Shown piece after piece: positions 4,462 to 22,338 of a stretch of 64,000 bases of DNA. The stretch lies in sequence record NC_042307.1. One strand, written 5' to 3'. The translations under genes were made by a program, and so were the position numbers. The first letter of the stretch is position 1. Each line of letters begins with the position of its first letter. Under the pieces are notes generated by a model, which was given only the letters and a program-made list of their open reading frames with translations, did no database searches and was not told the DNA's origin. Origin of the DNA: a phage.

Positions 4462-4890
4462 ATGTTTAATAATGTATTCTCTAAAGAAGCTAACCCAATA
4501 TTGGTTAATTTTTGGCGTACTCTTCCAGACAACCTGTACAATGAGGCTATTAATGCCCTGAAAATATGGTGTGATAATAATGAAATCTCCTTTGCTTTTA
4601 GAGGTGAGGTTGAAGAATCTCCCTGTATTGGTTTAATTGTGCAGGTAGAGGATGGTTTTGAAGAGATTGTCGGCTGGAAAGAGTTAGATGAAATGGGCTT
4701 GGTTTTTGCATTAAACTATAAGCTATTTATGCCCAATAAACACCGTATTGTTGTTAACTATAAAACCGGTGAATCTCCTGGTTTTCAAGTTAACGAACAT
4801 TACGGTTGGTCTTACTCACCGGAAGAGGTAAATGATGGTATCCAGAAACTTCGTCGTTTTGGTTATCAAATTCCGGGTTTAACTGCCTAA
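4462..4890 (+). CDS. hypothetical protein, tandem paralog 1
   Basis: 142 aa; shares conserved blocks with next ORF (FAFRGEVEESPCIGL vs FTFPEQQIDDPCVGV; C-terminal YQIPGL vs IYVPGL). Confidence 0.6.
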   Translation: MFNNVFSKEANPILVNFWRTLPDNLYNEAINALKIWCDNNEISFAFRGEVEESPCIGLIVQVEDGFEEIVGWKELDEMGLVFALNYKLFMPNKHRIVVNYKTGESPGFQVNEHYGWSYSPEEVNDGIQKLRRFGYQIPGLTA

Positions 4891-4899
4891 GGAGGCACA

Positions 4900-5292
4900 A
4901 TGGAACAAGTATACTGGCGTCAGATAGACCCTAGTTTGGTGAAGCGTGCGGAGAAGCTGCTACAACGTTGGTTGGGGGTAAGACAAGCCTCCTTCACTTT
5001 TCCGGAGCAGCAAATAGACGATCCCTGTGTTGGTGTTTTTCTATCAGGCTACGCTGGGGAATGGGAATTGGATTGGAATGAATTGTCTGCTATAGGTCTA
5101 ATTGTTGCCCTAAATTTCTCTTTGTTCCATCCACGTGGTTTGGCCATATGTCGTGTGCCTGAGGACGGTTGTTCGCCCCATCTTTTACAGGTGGAAGATG
5201 ATATTTGGGAGTACACTCCAGATATTCTCAAAGAAGCCAAAGAACAATTAAACCGTGTTGGGATTTATGTTCCAGGCCTGAATGATGAATGA
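4900..5292 (+). CDS. hypothetical protein, tandem paralog 2
   Basis: 130 aa; paralogous to 4462..4890; GGAG RBS upstream. Confidence 0.6.
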   Translation: MEQVYWRQIDPSLVKRAEKLLQRWLGVRQASFTFPEQQIDDPCVGVFLSGYAGEWELDWNELSAIGLIVALNFSLFHPRGLAICRVPEDGCSPHLLQVEDDIWEYTPDILKEAKEQLNRVGIYVPGLNDE

Positions 5293-5431
5293 TTTTTATT
5301 AGCTGAACTTTGTAATCCGGGCTATTAGTGCTCGGATTATTACATAATCTTTTCAGTCGATTGATAGTCAAAATAAATTGTCGTTGACAATTTGGATGGA
5401 TTATGTAATAATATATGTATTGGAGGTGAGG

Positions 5432-5884
5432 ATGTCATTCACACAGCAAGAACTTTTAGATAACTTCCGGTATGAAGAGGGTAAGTTATTTAGAACTACA
5501 GGAAGAAATGCAGGGAAAGAATGTTGTGTTTCTACGGGTAACGGATATTATCGTATATCTCTAGGGAATAGGACTATGCTTCGGCATAGAGCAATATTTT
5601 TAATGCATCATGGATACTTACCTGATTTAGTAGACCATGTGAATACTATAAAAGGTGATGATCGTATTGAAAATCTTAGAGAGCAGACAGTATCCGGTAA
5701 TCTAAGAAATATCAAATATAAGAAAGGAATGCATGTTTACCCTTCTGGTAGTAAGAACTGGCAAGTGGTATTTACTATTAACCGTAAACGTATAGTTAAA
5801 GGAACATATGACAACTATGAGGTTGCATGTTCTATGGCCAAGATGTTTAGAGGTCAATTATACGGTAGGGAATCAATCCAGTAA
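5432..5884 (+). CDS. HNH homing endonuclease
   Basis: N-terminus MSFTQQELLDNFRYEEGKLF parallels MITQERLKELFDYSPETGEF of other HNH copies; HNH core HRAIFLMHHGYLP...DHVN; start set at ATG 5432 preceded by GGAGGTGAGG. Confidence 0.7.
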   Translation: MSFTQQELLDNFRYEEGKLFRTTGRNAGKECCVSTGNGYYRISLGNRTMLRHRAIFLMHHGYLPDLVDHVNTIKGDDRIENLREQTVSGNLRNIKYKKGMHVYPSGSKNWQVVFTINRKRIVKGTYDNYEVACSMAKMFRGQLYGRESIQ

Positions 5885-5892
5885 AATTTCAT

Positions 5893-5935
5893 TTGCAAGG
5901 GAGTATTATTTTATAGTATAATATTCCCATAAATG
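5893..5935 (+). promoter_or_regulatory. T5 early-type promoter upstream of long leader
   Basis: ttgcaa (5893-5898), 18-bp spacer, tataat (5917-5922), then cataaatgagagac downstream box. Confidence 0.5.
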
Positions 5936-6417
5936 AGAGACATTAGTAAAAATTGATTTTGCTAATTTTTCTTGTTTACAATCCGCGATACGGAACAGTT
6001 AGGCTGCCCCATTAAGGGTTGTTTTAACTATTACTAGTGTTTATATTGCATTAGTTAATCTTCAATTAAGTGATCTGTGTACCCTGAATTCGGAAAGGTA
6101 AATCCAAACCGTGCATATTTAGCTCGTTATATAGGCAGAGTTTTATATGGGGGTGCGAACGAAAAGAGCAGCGAATGGCGGCACGTACAGTAGTCACCTA
6201 CCAATAGGATAGTGAGGACAAATAGAATCGGCTTAGCGGCCAATGACCTAGGTTCTATTCTGTATATGAGCGAAGAGAGCACAGCACTGAGATATGATAA
6301 CTTATTCATATTGTTTGATGATAATTGATGTTTACGTAAATAGTAGTAATAGTTGTTCTATTCTTTCTGAATAGTCCTAAAGAAAAGATTTCGATTAACC
6401 AACACAGGAGTATTGTT

Positions 6418-9207
6418 GTGTTTTCTATCCTCCAAGGTCACGCCGGATTTTCTCGTGATTTAGCAACAGGTATTTGGCGAGAAATCAAAGCGGAAGATTA
6501 TACCTTTGCCAAGCGATTCTCGAAAGAGCATCCAGAAGGTAAACCAGCTTCTATGCCCTTCAAATTTGATGTAATAGAAGAGCACGACCCACAAAGCCTT
6601 GCCGAAATGTTACCCCTTATGAGACGTTTAACGTCTGATCCTCATATCGTTGCGGTACGAGGTCGATGTCTTGCACCAAAAAATAATGTGCGACGTAAGA
6701 AAGGTAACTTTAATGTATCTAATCCTAGTAATATTATTGCTATGGACGTGGATGGTATCCTAGATACCGGTGGGTACGACAAATTTAATCTTGTTGGTAT
6801 GGCCCGCCACATTATTAAGATGTTGAATAGTATTAGTGAGGATATGTTTCCTCTTGATGCAGGCTTTATAGCTCATGCATCGTCTTCGGCTGGGCTAAAA
6901 CCAGGTATCCGAATGCACTTAATGCTAGAATCTAACGTCAAGGTAACTCAGGGTCAGCTAAAGTTCTTATTTACATCTATCAACGATAGCAGTAAGCAAA
7001 AATTTGGTTTTGATATTGCCGACCTAGCTTATTATTCATCTGTCCAGCTCCACTATTTTGCCGACCCCTTATTTAGCGATGGTATTGTTGATCCGTTTAA
7101 AGCGGAGAGTAAGCCACGTCTGGTGTATGTTAAAGGTTCGAAAGTAAATTTGCCCAATAATCTGGTTGACTATGAAACAACTAGAGGGGAGTTTAAGGAA
7201 GAGTTTTATTCCTTACTTGATCAAATTAAAGGCAAAAAGATTGCTTCTGATAAAGTAGAAGAAACCATCAGCGAGTTAGAAGAGGCTGATGATGGAGTGT
7301 ATTTGCGTATTATCCCCAAACTATATCATAGAGCATTAGAGGATGGGGTTGATTTTGCATGGCTAGAACGTGAGATTAAACCAGCTTTATCTGAATATAT
7401 TGCAACTAAAGATAACAGTCGTAATATTCAAGATTACTTTAATAACGGTCGTAAGCAGGCTCTCAAAGCGTTTGTGAATAACTCCAAACGTGAGATTCCA
7501 TTAAATCTGAAAGGTGTTCCACTTAAGAAATTAGAAGTGGATTCTCCACCAGAAGTTCCATACCTGAAGATTAACATTGTGCCCCCAAAAGGCCATATAA
7601 CATTTGTTAAGGCAAGTCTTGGTACTGGTAAAACTACGGCAGTAACTAAATGGCTGGACGCAGGTGTTCTTCCTGGCAACTTTTTAGCAGTTACAAATAC
7701 TAGAGCACTAGTGTCTTCAAATGCTAAGAAATTTAGTGCAGGACAATATGATAAGTCTGTAGATATGCTTAATTTCAAGCGTGGTGCTATTGACCGTATG
7801 TCCACAACTATTCACTCTTTGCACAAGTTTAAGAGTTTTATTGGTCAAATTGATGCAATCTTTATCGATGAATGTGATGCAGTAATGAATGACTTATTAT
7901 TCGCCCCCGTTGTTAAACAACGTCGTGAATGTATTCAGGTTCTTCGGGATATTCTTGCAACTGCAAAAATAATTATATTATCTGATGGTGATATTAGTGC
8001 AGAAACAATTGAAGCCTATGGTTCTTTGATTGATTTTGATAAACCAGTAGCATTTTATAATCATCATCGTAAGATGCTGTCAAAAGCTCACGCTTATGAG
8101 TTTCCTGATGAATCCAGTATTTGGGTTGCACTTCAGACTTCTCTAGAAATGGGTGAGAAGTCCATTCTAGTATCTGATTGTGGGCCTGATGAGCTGAATG
8201 AGAAGGGTATGGCACTACGTCGTAATACTGGTGCGTTAGTTAAGGAAATCCATTCAAACTCTACCTCAGATGTGGATATTCGACGTATTCTGGATTATAC
8301 AACTAATGAGCTAATTGATCAACAAATTGATTGCTTATTATGTAGTCCATCCGTAACGAGTGGCGTTGACTTCAACTATTTCGATAATGTATTTGTTATT
8401 ACTAGAACCAGTAATCAGGCGCCGAACATGCGTTTCCAAGCAATCAGGCGCGACCGTGGTGCTCAGAACATCTATTATTTTATTGATAAATCCACTAGTG
8501 GGTTCTCCGCAGGTTCTGAACAATATAATATTGATGAAGGTTGGCTGGAGTTAGCACAGCAATTATACGCACGTCGTAGAGAGCTGGAATCTAGAAACTA
8601 TACTAGTACCTTACGTTATTATTTGCTTGATCAGGGCGCAACTATTGATATTTTCAGCGAAAGCTGGGGAACTATTGAAGGTGCTGGTAAAGAATATACA
8701 GAAGAGCGAATCAAAGCTATTCTGCATTCAACTCCAGATTATTGTGCCCCACGTCATGCAGATGCATATGAAGCTAAACTACTTCTTGTTCGCTATTATC
8801 ATCTTGAGTCTATTAAAGATGTAACAGTTGAGCATGTTGAACAATATATCAAAGATAAACCGAATGATCGAGCTGCATTCTTCCATAAGATGCACGAGAT
8901 GTTCTGGGAAGATATTAAGAAGTGTTCAAATGTAACCATTAAACCATTCATAGAAGCTCTGAAAGGTAAGAAGAAAGACTTCTTCCTTAAAACAGGTCAG
9001 AGTGCTAACCCAAAATATGCTAGAATGTATCTTGGTATGATGGGTATTGGTAAGGATATGAACACTGAAAATATCGTAGACTGGTACAGAACCTATTGTA
9101 AAATCGAGTGTATGCCGATTCCTTTCAAATTCATGACTGACGAGGAAAAACATATGCATGATGAAGCAATGTCAGAGCTAGGTGCTAGAAATGACAGTGA
9201 AGAATAA
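6418..9207 (+). CDS. putative replication primase-helicase / origin-binding-like protein (P-loop NTPase)
   Basis: 929 aa, GTG start with AGGAG RBS; N-terminal acidic DxD (IIAMDVDGI) and MHLMLE motifs suggestive of primase-polymerase fold; Walker A ASLGTGKTTAV and Walker B FIDECDAV. Confidence 0.6.
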   Translation: MFSILQGHAGFSRDLATGIWREIKAEDYTFAKRFSKEHPEGKPASMPFKFDVIEEHDPQSLAEMLPLMRRLTSDPHIVAVRGRCLAPKNNVRRKKGNFNVSNPSNIIAMDVDGILDTGGYDKFNLVGMARHIIKMLNSISEDMFPLDAGFIAHASSSAGLKPGIRMHLMLESNVKVTQGQLKFLFTSINDSSKQKFGFDIADLAYYSSVQLHYFADPLFSDGIVDPFKAESKPRLVYVKGSKVNLPNNLVDYETTRGEFKEEFYSLLDQIKGKKIASDKVEETISELEEADDGVYLRIIPKLYHRALEDGVDFAWLEREIKPALSEYIATKDNSRNIQDYFNNGRKQALKAFVNNSKREIPLNLKGVPLKKLEVDSPPEVPYLKINIVPPKGHITFVKASLGTGKTTAVTKWLDAGVLPGNFLAVTNTRALVSSNAKKFSAGQYDKSVDMLNFKRGAIDRMSTTIHSLHKFKSFIGQIDAIFIDECDAVMNDLLFAPVVKQRRECIQVLRDILATAKIIILSDGDISAETIEAYGSLIDFDKPVAFYNHHRKMLSKAHAYEFPDESSIWVALQTSLEMGEKSILVSDCGPDELNEKGMALRRNTGALVKEIHSNSTSDVDIRRILDYTTNELIDQQIDCLLCSPSVTSGVDFNYFDNVFVITRTSNQAPNMRFQAIRRDRGAQNIYYFIDKSTSGFSAGSEQYNIDEGWLELAQQLYARRRELESRNYTSTLRYYLLDQGATIDIFSESWGTIEGAGKEYTEERIKAILHSTPDYCAPRHADAYEAKLLLVRYYHLESIKDVTVEHVEQYIKDKPNDRAAFFHKMHEMFWEDIKKCSNVTIKPFIEALKGKKKDFFLKTGQSANPKYARMYLGMMGIGKDMNTENIVDWYRTYCKIECMPIPFKFMTDEEKHMHDEAMSELGARNDSEE

Positions 9208-9442
9208 AAAATGGGAAACAAGGAAGTTTCCAGTAAAAGAACGTAAAGTTCCTGTTTATGATACTTCGGAGAAGCTATGTAGGGTGGTTCCTGCTAGACT
9301 AGCATCCATAAATGGCATAGGCGCATGGTTGCTAAAGCAGAGAAAGCAAAGCATATCATTACGTATATCTTTTGAGTTAGACCAAATCTATAGAGAATTG
9401 GGAGAATTGATTAAAGAAAATGATAACACAGGAAGAGGTTAG
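9191..9442 (+). CDS. hypothetical protein
   Basis: ORF track 9182..9442; likely start at ATG 9191 overlapping upstream gene end. Confidence 0.4.
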   Translation: MTVKNKKWETRKFPVKERKVPVYDTSEKLCRVVPARLASINGIGAWLLKQRKQSISLRISFELDQIYRELGELIKENDNTGRG

Positions 9443-9878
9443 AGAGGCTTTTGAGTATGATCCTGAAACAGGCCATCTTAAATGGAAGAAAACAAGACAG
9501 AAGAGTCTAGTAGGTAAGTTTGCCGGTGGTAAACATAAAGGGTATATAAGAATAGGGTTTAAGCGTAGGCACTGGGGAGAACATCAGCTGGTATTCTTAT
9601 ATCATAAGGGGTACATACCAGAAGAGATAGACCACAAAAACAGGATTAAAGATTGCAACTTTATAGAGAATTTAGAAGACTCCAATAGATCTAAGCAAAT
9701 GCACAATATTAATGTACGTAAAGACAATAAGTTGGGTGAGCCTAATATCTACATGAGGGGCGATAAATATTGTGTGCTAATGCAGAAAGGATCTATTCGT
9801 AAGTACCAGCAGTGCAATACTATAGAAGAGGCTAAAAAAGTTAGGGCTAATTTTAAGTCCGAACTCTATCCAAATTAA
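9420..9878 (+). CDS. HNH homing endonuclease
   Basis: MITQEEVREAFEYDPETGHLKWKK N-terminus and HNH core LVFLYHKGYIPEEIDHKN. Confidence 0.75.
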   Translation: MITQEEVREAFEYDPETGHLKWKKTRQKSLVGKFAGGKHKGYIRIGFKRRHWGEHQLVFLYHKGYIPEEIDHKNRIKDCNFIENLEDSNRSKQMHNINVRKDNKLGEPNIYMRGDKYCVLMQKGSIRKYQQCNTIEEAKKVRANFKSELYPN

Positions 9879-9946: not shown

Positions 9947-10651
9947 ATGGCTGGTTCTCGCAGAAAGAAACATATCCATGAAATCCCGGATGAAGTCTTT
10001 AAAAAAGTTATAGAGCATCTGGAAAACGGTGGTACTAAGAAAGCAGCATGCGAAATGCTCGGCGTATCATCCAACCCAACTATGGAAAGGATGATAGAAG
10101 AGTGGCAAGACCGTCAGATCCAAGTTGCCGAGATGAAGAAAAAGAAACGTGGTACACTCATTGAAGGTATTGAGTTGGCCAACGTTATTGAACAGTATCT
10201 ATCTGGTGATTCTTTTGAAGAGATTGCCGATCGTAATTACCGCTCCGTAGCAATGGTTAAATCTGTTCTGGAACGCTATGGTGCTCTGCTTCGTTTGAAT
10301 GATATTGTAGATCCATTGAATCCACCAATTATTCCTGATGATGCTGTGGCAGAAGAATTTGAGGTTGGAGAACTAGTTTGGGTTCCTGGATACCAGTGTA
10401 TCGGTGAAATCAAAAAAGCAATGGATAATCCTGTTGGTTGTTACCGTGTCTGGCTTCTATCAGAAGGCAAACAACAGAACGTTCATTATATGAATTACGA
10501 GCTGGCTTCTGTTAAACATCTGGAAAAGTTAGGGGTTGACGTAAAATCCCTGGGGTACAAGTGGACTCGTGAAGAAGTTATTACGTTGATTAACGAAGCT
10601 GTTAAGGCTGCCTTGAAACTTGATAAAGAAAAAGGAAAACGCCGTGAGTAG
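9947..10651 (+). CDS. putative HTH DNA-binding protein
   Basis: 234 aa directly downstream of PN25-like promoter; helix-turn-helix-like segment TKKAACEMLGVSSNPTMERM. Confidence 0.6.
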   Translation: MAGSRRKKHIHEIPDEVFKKVIEHLENGGTKKAACEMLGVSSNPTMERMIEEWQDRQIQVAEMKKKKRGTLIEGIELANVIEQYLSGDSFEEIADRNYRSVAMVKSVLERYGALLRLNDIVDPLNPPIIPDDAVAEEFEVGELVWVPGYQCIGEIKKAMDNPVGCYRVWLLSEGKQQNVHYMNYELASVKHLEKLGVDVKSLGYKWTREEVITLINEAVKAALKLDKEKGKRRE

Positions 10652-14920: not shown

Positions 14921-14953
14921 AAGGGGAGGGGGCTATGCTCCTTCCCCTTTTTG
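14921..14953 (+). terminator. rho-independent terminator
   Basis: aaggggagg / ccttcccctt hairpin (one G-U position) followed by ttttt. Confidence 0.55.
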
Positions 14954-14985
14954 CATTTAGAAGGCACGAAAGCGTGCAAAGGAGA

Positions 14986-16458
14986 ATGACCTTGTTTAAC
15001 GTGCAAGCTGTAGTGTTGAAGATGCTTCTAGCTTCCGAACAGAAGCAAATAGCATTGGAAACATTCTCAAAACTGCATAAAGATCATTTTAATGACGCTT
15101 TCTCCTCAATTTACCAAGCCGTCCAGAATTATTATAAAAAATATAACACAATGCCGTCCATTGACGCACTGATGCTTGAGGCTAATAGGAACGCCCGCCT
15201 TTCTCAAGCTCTAGTCGTTTTAGCTAACACTCAAATTCCAGAAGTTAGCATGGAACAGGCACTTGAAGTCCTAGAGGCCGAGTATACGCAGGATTTATTC
15301 CTGAAGCTTCTAGAAACAGACGTGCTTCAAGATTTAACAATGCTGGATCAGGGAGAAATTCTTAACCGAGTTGCCTCCCTTCACTTAAAATTAGAAGAGA
15401 AAGTAACGAATACTGGAAAAGTATTCAACGCAGATAACATGCGTATTTTCCAGAGAGAAGAAGATACCAAACTGAACTTAATCGCTCTTGGTATTTGTAA
15501 TGAGTTCGACGCTCAAATTGGTTTAGCTCGCACAGAAACGTTACTGCTTGGTGGTTGGCGTGGTACTGGTAAATCCATTATCTGTTCAAACATACAGGTT
15601 CAGCAATATTTGAATGGAGATATTGCTCCATACTTCTCAATTGAGATGAAAGAACATGAAGTATTTAGACGTAATCTAGCCATGTTAGCTGGTGTATCAG
15701 CACTAGCAATGCGTAATAATACTCTAGAAGGTGCAGCTCTGTTGAGATTAGCCAGAACTAGAGCTAGAATGTTTAACGGTGGTGAAGAGCTTTTCGATAA
15801 CTTCGTTAAACAATACACAATGGCTAAGATGAGTGATTTCTACGATATGGAAAGTAAGCTAATAGAAGGATATGAGCTACATACTCCTATGATTATTGTT
15901 TATGATCCTGAGCTGTCTATTACAACAGTTGACGTAGAATTAAATAAATTAGTTGCTAGATATGGGGATAAAGTTACAGTAGCTTTACTTGACTATATTA
16001 ACCAAACCCGACTTCCAGATTCTAAAACCATTGATATGTATGACTGGAAAGAACAGATGGTTGTTAGCTCGTCTTTCAAATCCCTCTGCCAGAAACATAA
16101 CGTGGCTGGTGTAGCTCCTTACCAGATTGATCAAGATGGTAGAACACGTATGTCAAAAGGGATTCTTGATTCCGCAGACATGGCTGCTAATCTTAATGCT
16201 GCAAAAGCTGATAATGGTCAAGGTGCTATTATGTTTGACTTCGTTAAGACCCGTTCTTCTGATAGCGTGAAGTTTATGCCTAAAATGAACTGGGAAACCC
16301 TGCGGATGGATAACACTACCAACCTAGCAATGGAAGATATATCTCAAATGGAAGCTGAGTTCGTTATCCCTATTGAGAAGGATAAGCCAGCTCAATCTAA
16401 ACGTGCTAAGAAAGACAAAGCTGAAAATTCAACAGGTGAACAGGCCAGCGATATATGA
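14986..16458 (+). CDS. replicative DNA helicase (DnaB-like P-loop ATPase)
   Basis: Walker A LLLGGWRGTGKS; start moved from track 14935 (inside terminator hairpin) to ATG 14986 preceded by AAAGGAGA. Confidence 0.6.
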   Translation: MTLFNVQAVVLKMLLASEQKQIALETFSKLHKDHFNDAFSSIYQAVQNYYKKYNTMPSIDALMLEANRNARLSQALVVLANTQIPEVSMEQALEVLEAEYTQDLFLKLLETDVLQDLTMLDQGEILNRVASLHLKLEEKVTNTGKVFNADNMRIFQREEDTKLNLIALGICNEFDAQIGLARTETLLLGGWRGTGKSIICSNIQVQQYLNGDIAPYFSIEMKEHEVFRRNLAMLAGVSALAMRNNTLEGAALLRLARTRARMFNGGEELFDNFVKQYTMAKMSDFYDMESKLIEGYELHTPMIIVYDPELSITTVDVELNKLVARYGDKVTVALLDYINQTRLPDSKTIDMYDWKEQMVVSSSFKSLCQKHNVAGVAPYQIDQDGRTRMSKGILDSADMAANLNAAKADNGQGAIMFDFVKTRSSDSVKFMPKMNWETLRMDNTTNLAMEDISQMEAEFVIPIEKDKPAQSKRAKKDKAENSTGEQASDI

Positions 16459-16988
16459 TAACACAGGAACGACTAAAAGAACTGTTTGACTACTCCCCAG
16501 AGACTGGGGAGTTTATTAGAAAAGTATCTAGAGGCAACCAGAAAGCCGGGAGTATAGTAACTAGAAAGGATTCAAACGGTTATATAATTATCGGTATAGA
16601 TGGTAGGGATTATAAAGCCCATCGTATGGCCTTCCTATTTATGGAAAACACGTTACCTGAAAAAGTAGACCATATAAACCGTATACGAAGTGATAATCGA
16701 TGGTGTAATCTAAGAGACGCCACAGCCCAGGAAAATAGTAGAAATAAAACCGCATGTAGTAAGTCTGGATATTTGGGAGTTGCTTGGGATATAGAAAAAC
16801 AAAGATGGAGAGTTCAAGTAAGAGACTCTAATAGCACTCTTAAAAATGGTGGCAGATTTAAGTATGAAGAGCTAGAGCTAGCTGTAAATTCAGCAAATAT
16901 ATTAAGGACTAAGTTACATGGAGAACGTGCTGTTATAGAATTTTTTGATACATCTAATTATCCTTCACTGGAGGAGTTAAATTCATGA
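16455..16988 (+). CDS. HNH homing endonuclease
   Basis: MITQERLKELFDYSPETGEF..., HNH core YKAHRMAFLFMENTLPEKVDHINR; ATGA overlap with flanking genes. Confidence 0.8.
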   Translation: MITQERLKELFDYSPETGEFIRKVSRGNQKAGSIVTRKDSNGYIIIGIDGRDYKAHRMAFLFMENTLPEKVDHINRIRSDNRWCNLRDATAQENSRNKTACSKSGYLGVAWDIEKQRWRVQVRDSNSTLKNGGRFKYEELELAVNSANILRTKLHGERAVIEFFDTSNYPSLEELNS

Positions 16989-17875
16989 GTAGAATAACAG
17001 AGTTACTTGATCTAAAAGGAATTGAGTACAAGGATACAGGCGGGGATATTCTTATATGCTGCCTGAATCCTGAACACGAGGATAAACACCCAAGTTTGCG
17101 TATTGATCCTGAAACCGGGATTATGCACTGCTTGAGTTGCGGTTTTGGCAAAGGTATACCTAGTATTTATCATTATTTTAATGAGACTCAATATAGACAA
17201 TCTCCAAGACTATCCCAAGTACGTAAAAAAATTTCTGAGATTAGAAATGGATCTACGAATCTTGCAATCCCAGAATCTGCTTTTCTTTTTGAAGGTGATT
17301 TCCGAGGTATCAGTTCTAAGACCTTAAAGAAATATTTTGCTTTCCAACACCAAGAGGACTGGGAAGGCAGAATTGTATTCCCAATCACAGATGCTGTTGG
17401 ACGCAATATCCTATTTTTGGGTCGTTCTATAAACAGTTCTGCCCCTCCTAAATACTTAGTAAAACCAAAACAAGTTTCACCGCCAATTTTTCCTGTACGA
17501 TATAATACTCCAGTTCTTATTCTAGTTGAAGGCATCTTTGATATGCTGAACCTAGAGGATAATGGTATAGACTATGCTTCTTGCTGCTTTGGTACACATC
17601 AGTTTACATCTGATAACATTGCTGATAAGTTCAGTCCTTACATTATTGCTGGAGTAAGAGTAGTTGTTATCTTGCTAGATAATGATGCCTCTGGTAATAA
17701 AGCTGCTCAAGCACTAGCGAAGCTAATTCGTACAAAAACACGTTTAACACCTGTAGTTGGTAACTTCCTTCTTCCAGAAGGTAAAGACCCAGGTGATTTA
17801 AATAAAGAAGAGATCGATATGTTGGCTCAACGTATTGAAATTTTAGTTGCCGAATCGCTCAAAGATTTGGTATAA
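16985..17875 (+). CDS. DNA primase (DnaG-like, Zn-finger + Toprim)
   Basis: Zn-binding CLNPEHEDKHPSLRIDPETGIMHCLSCGFGKG; Toprim acidic motifs LVEGIFDM and ILLDNDASGNKAA. Confidence 0.8.
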   Translation: MSRITELLDLKGIEYKDTGGDILICCLNPEHEDKHPSLRIDPETGIMHCLSCGFGKGIPSIYHYFNETQYRQSPRLSQVRKKISEIRNGSTNLAIPESAFLFEGDFRGISSKTLKKYFAFQHQEDWEGRIVFPITDAVGRNILFLGRSINSSAPPKYLVKPKQVSPPIFPVRYNTPVLILVEGIFDMLNLEDNGIDYASCCFGTHQFTSDNIADKFSPYIIAGVRVVVILLDNDASGNKAAQALAKLIRTKTRLTPVVGNFLLPEGKDPGDLNKEEIDMLAQRIEILVAESLKDLV

Positions 17876-17937: not shown

Positions 17938-20505
17938 TTGAAAATTGCAGTAGTTGATAAAGCTCTAAATAACACTCGTTATGATAAACACTTCCAGCTT
18001 TATGGTGAGGAAGTTGATGTATTCCATATGTGTAACGAGAAGTTATCTGGTCGTTTGCTGAAAAAGCATATTACAATCGGAACTCCAGATAACCCGTTCG
18101 ATCCGAACGATTACGATTTTGTTGTGCTAGTCGGTGCTGAACCTTTCCTGTATTTCGCAGGTAAGAAAGGTATCGGTGATTATACTGGTAAACGTGTAGA
18201 GCATGGTGGCTATGCCAACTGGATTGCAAGTATTAGTCCAGCTCAGCTACACTTTAAACCTGAAATGAAACCAGTTTTCGATGCTACTGTTGAAAGTATT
18301 CACGACATTATTAATGGTCGTGAGAAGATTGCAAAAGCTGGTGATTATCGTCCTATTACTGATCCAGACGAAGCTGAAGAATACATCAAGATGGTGTATA
18401 ACATGGTTATCGGACCTATCGCATTCGACTCCGAAACCTCAGCTCTGTATGCTCGTGATGGTTATCTTCTTGGTGTTTCTATGTCTCACCAAGAGTATCA
18501 GGGTGTCTATATTGACTCTGACAGCATCACCGAAGTAGCTGTACATTATCTCCAGAAAATTCTGGATAGTGAAAACCACACTATTGTTTTTCACAACTTG
18601 AAGTTTGATATGCACTTTTATAAGTACCATCTGGGACTTTCCTTTGAGAAAGCGCATAAAGAGCGTAGACTTCACGATACCATGTTACAACACTATGTTC
18701 TCGATGAACGTCGTGGTACTCACGGCTTGAAATCTCTAGCAATGAAGTATACCGATATGGGTGACTATGACTTCGAACTAGATAAGTTCAAGGATGATTA
18801 TTGCAAGGCACATAAGATCAAAAAAGAGGATTTCAGCTATGATCTGATTCCTTTTGATATTATGTGGCCATATGCTGCAAAAGATACCGATGCTACTCTG
18901 CGTCTGCATAACTTCTTCTTACCAAAAATTGAGAAGAACGAAAAGCTTTGCAGTCTATACTACGAAGTTCTGATGCCTGGTTGTGTATTCCTGCAACGTG
19001 TTGAAGATCGTGGTGTACCGATTTCCGTTGATCGCTTGAAAGAAGCTCAGTATCAGTTGACTCATAATTTGAATAAAGCCCGGGAGAAACTGTACACTTA
19101 TCCAGAAGTCGTTCAGCTGGAGAAGGATCAGAACGAAGCGTTTAACCCGAACTCTGTTAAGCAACTCCGTGTTCTTCTGTTTGATTATGTTGGTTTGACT
19201 CCAACTGGTAAACTGACGGATACAGGTGCAGATTCTACAAATGCAGAAGCTCTGAATGAACTGGCTACTCAGCACCCGATTGCTAAAACTCTGCTAGAGA
19301 TTCGTAAGCTGACTAAGCTGATTTCTACTTATGTTGAGAAGATTCTTCTGAGCATCGATGCAGATGGTTGCATTCGTACAGGTTTCCACGAACACATGAC
19401 TACTTCTGGTCGTCTGAGTTCTTCTGGTAAGCTGAACCTGCAACAGTTACCACGTGATGAATCTATTATCAAGGGTTGTGTAGTAGCTCCTCCTGGATAT
19501 CGTGTAATCGCATGGGACTTAACAACTGCGGAAGTTTACTATGCTGCTGTTCTATCTGGTGACAGAAATATGCAACAAGTATTTATCAACATGAAGAATG
19601 AGCCTGATAAATACCCTGACTTCCACTCAAACATCGCACACATGGTATTTAAACTGACTTGTGAACCACGTGATGTTAAGAAGCTGTTCCCAGCTCTGCG
19701 TCAGGCTGCTAAGGCAATTACCTTCGGTATTCTGTATGGTTCTGGCCCAGCGAAAGTAGCTCATTCTGTTAACGAAGCTCTTCTGGAACAGGCTGCTAAG
19801 ACAGGCGAACCGTTTGTTGAATGTACCGTTGCAGATGCGAAGGACTATATCGAAACTTACTTCGGTCAGTTCCCTCAGCTTAAGCGTTGGATTGATAAGT
19901 GCCACGATCAGATCAAGAATCATGGATTTATCTATAGTCACTTTGGTCGTAAACGTCGTCTGCATAATATCCATTCCGAAGACCGTGGCGTTCAGGGTGA
20001 AGAAATTCGTTCTGGATTTAATGCAATCATTCAGTCTGCTTCTTCTGATAGTCTCCTTTTAGGTGCTGTAGATGCAGATAATGAGATCATTTCTCTTGGC
20101 TTAGAACAAGAGATGAAGATTGTTATGTTGGTTCATGACTCCGTAGTTGCTATTGTTCGTGAAGACTTGATTGATCAATACAATGAAATTCTGATTCGTA
20201 ATATTCAGAAAGACCGTGGTATCAGTATTCCTGGCTGTCCGATTGGTATTGATTCAGATTCTGAAGCTGGAGGTTCTCGTGACTATTCTTGTGGTAAGAT
20301 GAAGAAACAGCACCCATCAATCGCTTGTATTGATGATGATGAATATACTCGTTACGTTAAAGAAATGTTACTTGACGCAGATTTCGAGTATAAGAAATTA
20401 GCTGCAATGGATAAAGAGCATCCAGACCACAGCAAGTACAAGGATGATAAGTTTATTGCTGTATGTAAAGATTTGGATAATGTAAGAAGGATTCTCGGTG
20501 CTTAA
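17938..20505 (+). CDS. DNA polymerase, family A, with 3'-5' exonuclease domain
   Basis: 855 aa; TTG start with AAGGAG RBS; exo motif AFDSETSALY; Pol A motif B RQAAKAITFGILYG; motif C LVHDSVV. Confidence 0.9.
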   Translation: MKIAVVDKALNNTRYDKHFQLYGEEVDVFHMCNEKLSGRLLKKHITIGTPDNPFDPNDYDFVVLVGAEPFLYFAGKKGIGDYTGKRVEHGGYANWIASISPAQLHFKPEMKPVFDATVESIHDIINGREKIAKAGDYRPITDPDEAEEYIKMVYNMVIGPIAFDSETSALYARDGYLLGVSMSHQEYQGVYIDSDSITEVAVHYLQKILDSENHTIVFHNLKFDMHFYKYHLGLSFEKAHKERRLHDTMLQHYVLDERRGTHGLKSLAMKYTDMGDYDFELDKFKDDYCKAHKIKKEDFSYDLIPFDIMWPYAAKDTDATLRLHNFFLPKIEKNEKLCSLYYEVLMPGCVFLQRVEDRGVPISVDRLKEAQYQLTHNLNKAREKLYTYPEVVQLEKDQNEAFNPNSVKQLRVLLFDYVGLTPTGKLTDTGADSTNAEALNELATQHPIAKTLLEIRKLTKLISTYVEKILLSIDADGCIRTGFHEHMTTSGRLSSSGKLNLQQLPRDESIIKGCVVAPPGYRVIAWDLTTAEVYYAAVLSGDRNMQQVFINMKNEPDKYPDFHSNIAHMVFKLTCEPRDVKKLFPALRQAAKAITFGILYGSGPAKVAHSVNEALLEQAAKTGEPFVECTVADAKDYIETYFGQFPQLKRWIDKCHDQIKNHGFIYSHFGRKRRLHNIHSEDRGVQGEEIRSGFNAIIQSASSDSLLLGAVDADNEIISLGLEQEMKIVMLVHDSVVAIVREDLIDQYNEILIRNIQKDRGISIPGCPIGIDSDSEAGGSRDYSCGKMKKQHPSIACIDDDEYTRYVKEMLLDADFEYKKLAAMDKEHPDHSKYKDDKFIAVCKDLDNVRRILGA

Positions 20506-20995
20506 TTTCAAATTGCCCGTCTATGCGTTACGGGCGTTTGTATCAATTGAGCAGGAAGGTGATTATTCCATAATTACAACAAGATATAATAAATATGTGT
20601 TAGATAACAGGGAGTTGCCTGGCACATTCTCTCAACGTAGGTTAGCCTTATTTGAGAAGCGGAAAGAATTACCGTACAAGCTCTATCCTATTAGAGGTAG
20701 AATATCAATGTTGTCTCAATTAGTTGGGTCAAAGCGTAGCCAATTTATAGATTCTGATGGAAATCTTATTAACTGGAAGAAAACTACGTTCTATGATGTT
20801 GTCACCGCTAAAGTTTTGCATTCAGCTAGAATTTATAACGGAAAATACCAATGCTATGTAGCTAAAGTTCCATATCCATTTGTATTATCCTATGTTCCAG
20901 CTTATATAAGCTATATTCTGGTAAATAATAGCCCTGTTATTTATCAAGTCCATCAAGAGGAGCCTGAAATTCCTAGACTTAGAATAAAATTATGA
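20498..20995 (+). CDS. hypothetical protein
   Basis: 165-aa ORF overlapping polymerase stop and helicase start. Confidence 0.5.
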   Translation: MLNFKLPVYALRAFVSIEQEGDYSIITTRYNKYVLDNRELPGTFSQRRLALFEKRKELPYKLYPIRGRISMLSQLVGSKRSQFIDSDGNLINWKKTTFYDVVTAKVLHSARIYNGKYQCYVAKVPYPFVLSYVPAYISYILVNNSPVIYQVHQEEPEIPRLRIKL

Positions 20996-22338
20996 AGGTT
21001 GTTATATCTAATAAAGCCTATTTCAAGCCCGATGATGAACTTTGGGATTATTGTAGTAAGCAAACCACTTATCACATAGAGACAATGACTAGTAAATACC
21101 CTATTATGTATAAGAATAGTGGTGTTGTTGCCAAAGAGATTAAGTGGATTCCTATTACGCGTCTGGACTTATTAGATGCTAAAGGAATAAAATACGAATT
21201 AGTCGATAAACGCACATTAGCTCCGGTAGATATACCAGAACCGTCGTTTAAACTGCGTGAAGAAGATCAGCTTCCAATATACGAAGAATGCGATGATACC
21301 TGTATTATTAATGGTAAGCCTGGGTTTGGTAAAACTATCCTAGCACTTGCACTTGCGTATAAATTTGGCCAGAAAACTTTGGTAATCTGTACGAATACAT
21401 CCATTCGTGAAATGTGGGCGGCAGAAGTTCGTAAATGGTTTGGGTTTGAACCAGGCATCATAGGTTCTGGAAAGTACAATATTGATCCACCCATTGTGGT
21501 CAGTAATATTCAAACAGTGAATAAACATGCGAATAATCTTTCTAAAGTATTCGGTACTGTTATAGTTGATGAAGTTCACCATTGTGTGGCTACAACTTTC
21601 ACTAACTTCCTAGAAATATCATGTGCTCGCTATAAAATTGGACTATCCGGTACACTAAAACGAAAAGATGGTCTACAAGTTATGTTCAAAGATTTCTTTG
21701 GATATAAGATATTTAGCCCACCGGTTAATAATACTGTTGCACCTACAATCCATAGGTACTCCGTGCCTGTTGAGCTATCAGGAAACCAAAACGTACCGTG
21801 GGCATTACGTGCTAACGATGTGTATAACCATCCTGAATACCGAGAGACTATTATAAACCTAGCACATCTATATGTGAATATGGGGCATAAAGTACTCATT
21901 CTAAGTGATAGAACAGAGTTAATCCAAACAGTACTAGAAGCTCTTGCACAGCGTGGTGTTACAACCTATGAGATTATAGGTGCAACCCACTTAGATGACA
22001 GATTAAAAATTCAGGAAGATATAGCAAAAGGTGGGCCGTGTGTGCTTGCAGCAGCTCAAAGCATCTTCTCCGAAGGTATTTCACTTAACGAGCTGTCTTG
22101 TTTAATAATGGGGAGCCTCATTAATAATGAATCTCTCATTGAACAGCTTGCAGGCCGTGTTCAACGTATTGTCGAGGGTAAACTCGACCCAATCGTTGTA
22201 GATCTAATTATGAAAGGTGGCACTGGGTTAAGGCAGGCTTCTGGACGTATGGCCGTGTATCGCAATAACGCGTGGAAAGTAATCACAATGACCCCTGAGA
22301 AAGCTGTGAGATTAGCACAAGAAATATTTAAAACTTGA
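20992..22338 (+). CDS. SF2 DNA helicase (DEAH-like; T5 D10-like)
   Basis: Walker A GKPGFGKT, Walker B IVDEVHH, helicase C-terminal motifs (QLAGRVQR). Confidence 0.8.
   Translation: MKVVISNKAYFKPDDELWDYCSKQTTYHIETMTSKYPIMYKNSGVVAKEIKWIPITRLDLLDAKGIKYELVDKRTLAPVDIPEPSFKLREEDQLPIYEECDDTCIINGKPGFGKTILALALAYKFGQKTLVICTNTSIREMWAAEVRKWFGFEPGIIGSGKYNIDPPIVVSNIQTVNKHANNLSKVFGTVIVDEVHHCVATTFTNFLEISCARYKIGLSGTLKRKDGLQVMFKDFFGYKIFSPPVNNTVAPTIHRYSVPVELSGNQNVPWALRANDVYNHPEYRETIINLAHLYVNMGHKVLILSDRTELIQTVLEALAQRGVTTYEIIGATHLDDRLKIQEDIAKGGPCVLAAAQSIFSEGISLNELSCLIMGSLINNESLIEQLAGRVQRIVEGKLDPIVVDLIMKGGTGLRQASGRMAVYRNNAWKVITMTPEKAVRLAQEIFKT

Follow-up and report, generated by a model that had tools for sequence, protein, structure and literature searches.

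A predicted primase-polymerase-like domain in the D2 helicase of T5-like phages and a conserved leader upstream of its gene

Introduction

Bacteriophage T5 is a classic model phage. To our knowledge, the initiation of T5 replication is still unexplained, no origin-initiator pair has been defined, and the D2 protein is the only purified candidate initiator. About 40% of D2 (amino acids (aa) 1-390) had no assigned function beyond a predicted coiled coil and helix-turn-helix (HTH). Here the D2 gene in a 64,000-nucleotide (nt) stretch of phage DNA (sequence record NC_042307.1; hereafter the window) is analysed. An open reading frame (ORF) with a GTG start codon at 6418-9207 (+) encodes a protein of 929 aa, which on sequence grounds is virtually certain to be the T5 D2 orthologue. 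While this protein has been described before, helicase activity included, the assignment of its N-terminus to the AEP (primase-polymerase) superfamily and an apparently structured leader upstream of the gene are new here. The domain precedes a UL9-type superfamily 2 (SF2) helicase motor, and the likeliest role of D2, favoured with modest confidence, would be that of a self-priming origin initiator.

Wong, Sayers & Sanders (NAR 2013; PMC3632103) cloned and purified T5 D2 (AAU05245) and described its biochemistry. T5 D2 is a DNA-stimulated ATPase and a bipolar helicase, with robust 3'-5' and weaker 5'-3' unwinding. K405E was the catalytic-dead control, and both polarities rely on the same core catalytic residues. 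The protein was assayed only on short partial duplexes, and stable unwinding complexes formed on 3' tails, not on 5' tails. In that paper, Herpes_ori_bp is placed at aa 392-532, both Walker motifs as well as motifs V and VI are marked, and two coiled coils and an HTH (308-329) are predicted; nothing is assigned to the first ~270 residues, and a role in initiation was proposed. CyRepA1 (Slr7037) is the essential Rep of the Synechocystis plasmid pSYSA and a genetically proven replication initiator, and an RNA just upstream of its rep gene is thought to prime replication. Within the all3500 family, AEP domains fused to a UL9-like SF2 helicase (pVOG9714) have already been described, and gp68 of phage PAU is another AEP-SF2 fusion. 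Thus, the domain combination of D2 is precedented and not new in kind.

Results

The N-terminal domain of D2

A first-pass annotation made from the letters alone had described a 929-aa protein with two motifs reminiscent of primase-polymerases in its N-terminal third and two motifs of a P-loop helicase core. The ORF and all four motifs were recovered, at aa 108-113 (AMDVDG), 166-171 (MHLMLE), 402-407 (GTGKTT) and 482-489 (FIDECDAV). Conservation was analysed in an alignment of 50 D2 homologues (31-81% identity) and in a wider-family alignment of 34 relatives of the N-terminal domain. Judged by the 50 homologues, the four motifs are not chance strings, as their key residues are invariant down to 31% identity.

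The N-terminal positions invariant in the 50 homologues are K32, R93, D110, D112, S155, S157, G159, H167, D202, Y206, P217, F219, P226 and R234. Comparison with the AEP motif definitions of PMC5862659, namely I (hhhDhD/E), II (sxH), III (hD/E) and IV (Rh), shows that D110 and D112 fit motif I and D202 motif III, and that H167 would fit motif II and R234 motif IV. D110 and D112 are invariant in both alignments, as is IAD202 of motif III, and the acidic triad is invariant even in distant relatives fused to other helicases. H167 is located on strand 164-176 of the structural model and follows an invariant S155-x-S157-x-G159 loop (50 homologues). R234 is followed by a hydrophobic residue, as in the published description of motif IV. 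Because the whole active-site set is invariant, the domain is judged somewhat more likely to be catalytically competent than to be inactive.

Structural comparison of the N-terminal model gave nine matches in the AEP superfamily, including vaccinia D5, the primase UL52 of herpes simplex virus (HSV), two LigD/non-homologous end joining polymerases, the cyanophage S-2L PrimPol, HP0184 and pRN1 ORF904. Other matches of similar Z are helical repeats with root-mean-square deviations of 7-20 Å, owed to the second, helical domain of the model. The D2 N-terminal domain shows the AEP catalytic fold, and aa ~1-245 can be assigned this fold with high confidence. A Foldseek search of the viral models in BFVD returned matches with a probability of 1.00 and E-values of 1e-8 to 1e-4, labelled primase, primase/helicase, "Primase C-terminal 2", VirE-like and NrS-1-polymerase-like. 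An exhaustive phmmer search with aa 1-390 yielded 85 cluster representatives, of which the distant ones align over aa ~30-250 only. The domains downstream in the distant relatives (n=47) are VapE-like (10), DUF5906 (9), PriCT_2 (5), AAA_25 (2), D5_N (2) and Pox_D5 (1), and one relative (P0120) has the order N-domain, PriCT_2, D5_N, DUF5906, Pox_D5. These domain orders are classic AEP primase-helicase architectures of mobile elements. PHROG 16950 ("DNA primase") matches 26 of the 34 relatives of the N-terminal domain. The resemblance to primase-polymerases proposed in the first-pass annotation is thus supported by invariant motif residues, structural matches and primase-helicase relatives alike.

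Several observations weigh against this assignment. Motif II is atypical in that the residue two positions before H167 is an arginine rather than a small residue, and conservation of the motif II histidine falls below 90% in the wider family. Curated AEP models (Prim-Pol, DNA_primase_S, Herpes_UL52, AEP-TOTE and others) gave no AEP Pfam match at E<=1 in the 50 homologues, and the sole AEP match of the 34 domain relatives at E<=5 was an insignificant one to AEP-TOTE (E 0.29). A profile of the N-domain family searched against PDB sequences matched no AEP protein, just a chalcone synthase by chance. Finally, hhalign of D2 aa 258-392 (48 sequences) with the PriCT_2 regions of five relatives gave a probability of 0.1%.

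The last result concerns the helical domain (aa ~260-360), which sits where PriCT stands in other AEP proteins. This equivalence is positional only, and Pfam PriCT matched none of the 50 full-length homologues or the 34 domain relatives. As the comparison with PriCT_2 was negative, a PriCT identity was rejected and the domain is not given this name. It includes the HTH at 308-329 predicted for T5 D2 (PMC3632103).

Homologue searches with parts of the protein were less productive than that with the full-length query, which succeeded. The 390-aa N-terminal fragment returned only two partial proteins and the 34-sequence domain profile only four proteins, as the word index seems to prefer targets of similar length. 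Literature searches that paired T5 or Tequintavirus with AEP or with primase-polymerase gave no results, subscription journals lying outside their coverage. In the literature searched, the link between T5 D2 and AEP is absent from the D2 paper (PMC3632103), the AEP surveys and the 2026 UL9 structure paper. The assignment may already have been noted in InterPro or in a subscription-journal paper.

The helicase motor and the C-terminal region

The region following the helical domain matches Pfam PF02399 (Herpes_ori_bp) at aa 389-533 with 29.4 bits against a gathering cut-off of 20, and the same model matches 42 of the 50 homologues. A PDB sequence search of D2 gave matches to the origin-binding protein (OBP) of HSV-1. 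The full-length AlphaFold model has a predicted local distance difference test score (pLDDT) of 86.6. In Foldseek its top four matches are HSV-1 OBP structures (9hgj and 9hgi best) with E-values of ~1e-15, five orders of magnitude better than those of generic SF2 helicases. The 551-685 aligned columns exceed the RecA core. In addition to the invariant Walker A and B residues (Table 1), R678 and R680 are invariant in the 50 homologues, as expected of arginine fingers. The P-loop helicase core of the first-pass annotation is therefore confirmed as a UL9-like SF2 motor by PF02399, Foldseek and the invariant Walker motifs, and the structure prediction it had suggested led to AEP proteins for the N-terminal model and to HSV-1 OBP for the full-length model.

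The NCBIfam model CyRepA1 (NF042913) matches the helicase half only, over aa 392-708, with an E-value of 2.4e-34. Membership of this family was rejected, since the score of 119.2 bits is below the cut-off of 200. The C-terminal helical region of the model is a candidate DNA-binding or dimerisation module. Overall, D2 would consist of four parts, an AEP-type domain (~1-245), a helical domain (~260-360), a UL9-type SF2 motor (~389-708) and a C-terminal helical region (~709-929).

Orthology and naming of the gene

The first codons, GTG TTT TCT ATC CTC CAA GG, are identical to those of the T5 D2 ORF cloned by Wong et al. The source phage is T5-like and ~96% identical to BF23 at the nt level. A search with the DNA of the gene hit 443 phage records, which are without exception T5-like (Demerecviridae) and of which 436 cover at least 80% of the gene. 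The best match is Escherichia phage BF23 (95.9% nt identity), whose record lists the gene as obp, "replication origin binding protein". The match to PHROG 3712 ('replication origin binding') runs end to end (1-926 of 927 positions, E=0). The neighbours of D2 form the T5 early replication cluster, the same in BF23, T5_ev219 and T5, and D2 is the first gene of this cluster, behind a long conserved leader.

The naming differs between records. The 929-aa helicase is variously called obp, D2 or 'DNA primase C', and some GenBank records label it "5'-3' and 3'-5' helicase" or "DNA primase C", the latter unexplained. A downstream 234-aa HTH protein (9947-10651, +) is named 'D2 helicase' in BF23, 'D2 protein' in T5_ev219 and 'D3 protein' in T5 AY692264. 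Further loci concerned are at 15077-15781 and 4768-5301 of two other records. The BF23 label 'D2 helicase' on this ORF looks like an annotation slip. An 86-aa ORF (9182-9442, +) overlaps the final 26 nt of D2; it encodes a hypothetical protein kept in BF23, T5_ev219 and T5 (T5p108), for which Pfam matched nothing.

The upstream leader

A search with the 533-nt gap in front of D2 (5885-6417) hit 443 records, as many as for the gene. The leader matches 341 records at 90-95% identity and the gene 371 records at 80-90%, indicating that the aligned parts of the leader are conserved at least equally, in a comparison that combines different BLAST modes and in which only 274 records span at least 80% of the leader. 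Two sigma-70-like promoters (5893-5922 and 5953-5982) are both upstream of the leader. Both are kept across T5, BF23, Stitch, VAH1 and DU_PP_V, and the first coincides with a putative promoter in the annotation of T5. The leader alignment contains the invariant islands GAUACGGAACAGUU.GGCUGCCCCAU and GGCUUAGCGGCC, the latter forming an invariant hairpin at 6230-6241. The central part of the leader occurs as two very different alleles.

RNAalifold of nine sequences gave a multi-helix domain of 72 pairs, closed by long-range stems of ~6026-6080 with 6300-6354, the outermost of which pairs 6026-6043 with 6337-6354. In these sequences pairing is kept in 89% of cells (37-48% with slid partners), compensatory changes occur in 41 of the 72 pairs (12-18 when slid) and the covariation score is 0.47 (0.11-0.15 when slid), with none of 500 shuffles attaining the observed values; the figures are inflated, as the alignment used for scoring is also the one that yielded the structure, but the margin is large. 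G-U pairs are frequent at + strand positions, so the structure is likely an RNA in the sense of D2 transcription. Since the folding energy is unremarkable (z = -1.6 on the + strand and -1.3 on the - strand), covariation is the one ground on which an RNA structure is proposed. Rfam had no match for the leader of the window or the leaders of three relatives. The CUUAGCGG hairpin remains in phages whose D2 has only 63-66% identity. When the most divergent leaders (L033, L035, L043) were added, the MAFFT alignment broke, leaving nothing but the outer stem and the CUUAGCGG hairpin. The ~430-nt leader thus seems to form a large and conserved RNA structure, which may regulate initiator synthesis, act as a separate RNA, or serve as an origin transcript or belong to the origin. 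The parallel to the pSYSA RNA, which lies upstream of a homologous Rep gene, is suggestive only.

One copy of the UL9 recognition core GTTCGCAC is present at 6153-6160 (- strand), 258 nt upstream of D2. In the 64 kb, two copies occur against 0.74 expected, a non-significant count that 15 of 100 shuffles reach, and the leader allele of VAH1 and DU_PP_V lacks the site. The box was therefore rejected as evidence of origin binding, and its copy in the leader is probably due to chance.

Neighbouring genes

As the first-pass annotation had correctly stated when it called a second primase-helicase redundant, a DnaG-like primase and a DnaB-like helicase are encoded by separate genes, recognised by Pfam downstream of D2 (Table 1). 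Three free-standing HNH_3 homing-endonuclease ORFs are found around the replication genes (all +): upstream of the D2 leader (5378-5884), after the small ORF 3' of D2 (9420-9878) and between the DnaB-like and DnaG-like genes (16455-16988). BF23 has no HNH_3 ORF at these three sites, and T5 has one elsewhere, directly after D2. The GC skew changes sign near 30 kb, coinciding with a switch of ORF orientation from + to - where early replication genes give way to late structural ones, and there is a brief local reversal around 56-58 kb.

Table 1. Positions in the window of D2, its predicted parts, the upstream leader and downstream replication genes
Feature	Position	Strand	Remarks
Two sigma-70-like promoters, TTGCAA-18-TATAAT and TTGATT-18-TACAAT	5893..5982	+	consensus scan
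Structured 5' leader of the D2 transcript, ~430 nt	5985..6417	+	covariation
Shine-Dalgarno AGGAG	6406..6410	+	7 nt 5' of GTG; kept in T5, BF23, Stitch, VAH1
Complete gene, orthologue of D2 / 'replication origin binding protein'	6418..9207	+	GTG start, stop included
N-terminal AEP-like (primase-polymerase) domain, aa ~1-245	6418..7152	+	
Putative AEP motif I, SNIIAMDVDG (hhhDhD), D110 and D112	6727..6756	+	on strand 104-114
Putative AEP motif II region, SSSAGLKPGIRMHLMLE	6880..6930	+	Ser/Gly loop, then strand with invariant H167
Putative AEP motif III, DIADLAYY	7012..7035	+	invariant D202 and Y206
Motif IV-like 'Rh', invariant R234	7117..7131	+	start of strand 235-238; assigned by position only
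Alpha-helical domain, aa ~260-360	7195..7497	+	helices 261-356 in model
UL9-like SF2 helicase core, two RecA-like domains, aa ~389-708	7582..8541	+	
Walker A, GTGKTT, K405	7621..7638	+	G402-T406 invariant in 50 homologues
Walker B, FIDECDAV	7861..7884	+	F482, D484, E485, D487 invariant in 50 homologues
C-terminal all-helical region, aa ~709-929	8542..9204	+	helices 709-921, pLDDT ~90
DnaB-like SF4 helicase (T5 D6)	14935..16458	+	Pfam DnaB_C, BF23 annotation; separate from D2 protein
DnaG-like primase	16985..17875	+	Pfam Toprim_2, Toprim_4, Zn_ribbon_DnaG, DNAG_N; separate from D2
Family-A DNA polymerase (PolA)	17938-20505		downstream of D2
Further SF2 helicase D10	20992-22338		downstream of D2

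Discussion

The first-pass annotation had suggested an origin-recognition or initiation factor, and this idea is supported as the likeliest role. As a self-priming origin initiator, D2 would be set on the origin by its helical or C-terminal modules. The UL9-type motor would then melt and unwind the DNA with ATP in both polarities, as T5 D2 does in vitro, and the AEP domain, as its fold and invariant catalytic residues suggest, would make the first primer on the exposed strand. Judging from the gene content, the DnaB-like helicase, the DnaG-like primase and the PolA-type polymerase would subsequently run the forks.

Alternatively, D2 could be a PrimPol-like enzyme for repriming or fork restart, whose motor remodels stalled or broken forks, such as those at the single-strand nicks that T5 DNA naturally has, and whose AEP domain then primes anew further downstream. 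This is unlikely: the nearest helicase relatives with known roles, UL9 and the plasmid Rep CyRepA1, are initiators, D2 heads the replication cluster behind its leader, and the structural likeness to PrimPol stems from the common AEP fold and not from PrimPol biology. The N-terminal domain could also be a non-polymerising derivative of the AEP fold used for DNA binding or protein docking, leaving D2 only an origin-binding helicase. The atypical motif II, the separately encoded DnaG-type primase and the failure of hidden Markov models of active AEP families to match the domain all speak for such a loss of activity. However, the predicted metal- and nucleotide-binding positions (D110, D112, H167, D202, R234 and the Ser/Gly loop) are all invariant among homologues as distant as 31% identity, and the acidic triad is kept in distant relatives fused to other helicases. 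Such residues are normally exactly those lost by inactivated enzyme domains, and a non-polymerising domain is accordingly rated improbable.

It is more improbable still that D2 acts as another complete replicative primase-helicase, moving with the fork as a redundant or alternative version of the DnaB-like/DnaG-like pair. Primase-helicase fusions usually work at forks, and a role as replicative helicases has been put forward for AEP-SF2 fusions (PAU gp68). However, SF2 helicases function as monomers or dimers, and the unwinding described for T5 D2 was on short partial duplexes, with stable complexes on 3' tails and not on 5' tails. In addition, all 443 matching T5-like records carry D2, and the inspected relatives retain the DnaB/DnaG pair too. 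As both are kept side by side, D2 and the pair should have distinct roles. Coincidence is rated very improbable.

If D2 has an active AEP domain at aa 1-245, T5-like phages (443 records in the collection searched) would hold two primases of different evolutionary types, predicting that initiation and Okazaki priming are divided between them. The bipolarity of the helicase, puzzling so far, could then be reconsidered with a primase in mind that has to reach the freshly opened strand. A bolder proposal, improbable at present, is that T5-like phages start replication with one polypeptide that recognises, unwinds and AEP-primes the origin, the leader RNA perhaps being part of the device. D2 may then be the bacterial-virus counterpart of UL9 and UL52 combined, and the ~400-nt leader RNA may be an origin transcript or pre-primer or a sensor of initiator synthesis. 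Such a device would resemble ColE1 and pSYSA/CyRepA1, in which initiation is coupled to an RNA.

Comparison with known systems places the window protein closest to T5 D2, an orthologue of the same length class with the same start and gene neighbourhood. The residue numbers of K405 in Walker A, of Walker B and of motifs V and VI agree, and the differences between the proteins are not substantive. By analogy, the ATPase and bipolar unwinding of T5 D2 can with confidence be expected of the window protein. The nearest relative of the motor in both sequence and structure is UL9 (PF02399; PDB 9hgj, 9hgi, 9zgf, 9vjh), a replication initiator that melts the origin. However, UL9 has no N-terminal AEP domain, the herpesvirus AEP primase being the separate UL52, and its unwinding is unidirectional (3'-5'), whereas that of T5 D2 is bipolar. 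Origin recognition by UL9 occurs through a SAP subdomain within the C-terminal domain, for which the C-terminal helical region of D2 is at most a candidate counterpart.

The AEP-helicase fusions of mobile elements (all3500-like, PAU gp68, pRN1 ORF904, poxvirus D5/E5) share with D2 the order of AEP domain, helical domain and nucleoside triphosphatase/helicase, together with motifs I and III, a putative motif II and a putative motif IV-like arginine, and structural matches were found to pRN1 ORF904 and D5/E5. However, the sequence models of these families miss D2, and most of their members have SF3 or SF4 motors where D2 has SF2. Unlike this comparison set, D2 coexists in T5-like phages with a full DnaB/DnaG set. 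In CyRepA1, the helicase module is clearly homologous to that of D2, whereas the N-terminal domain is primase-type but DUF3854/Toprim-like and not AEP. Thus, the UL9-type motor occurs with at least three N-terminal arrangements, AEP (D2, all3500), Toprim-like (CyRepA) and none (herpesviruses), which, if the assignment of D2 is true, would bear on the phage ancestry of herpesvirus replication proteins.

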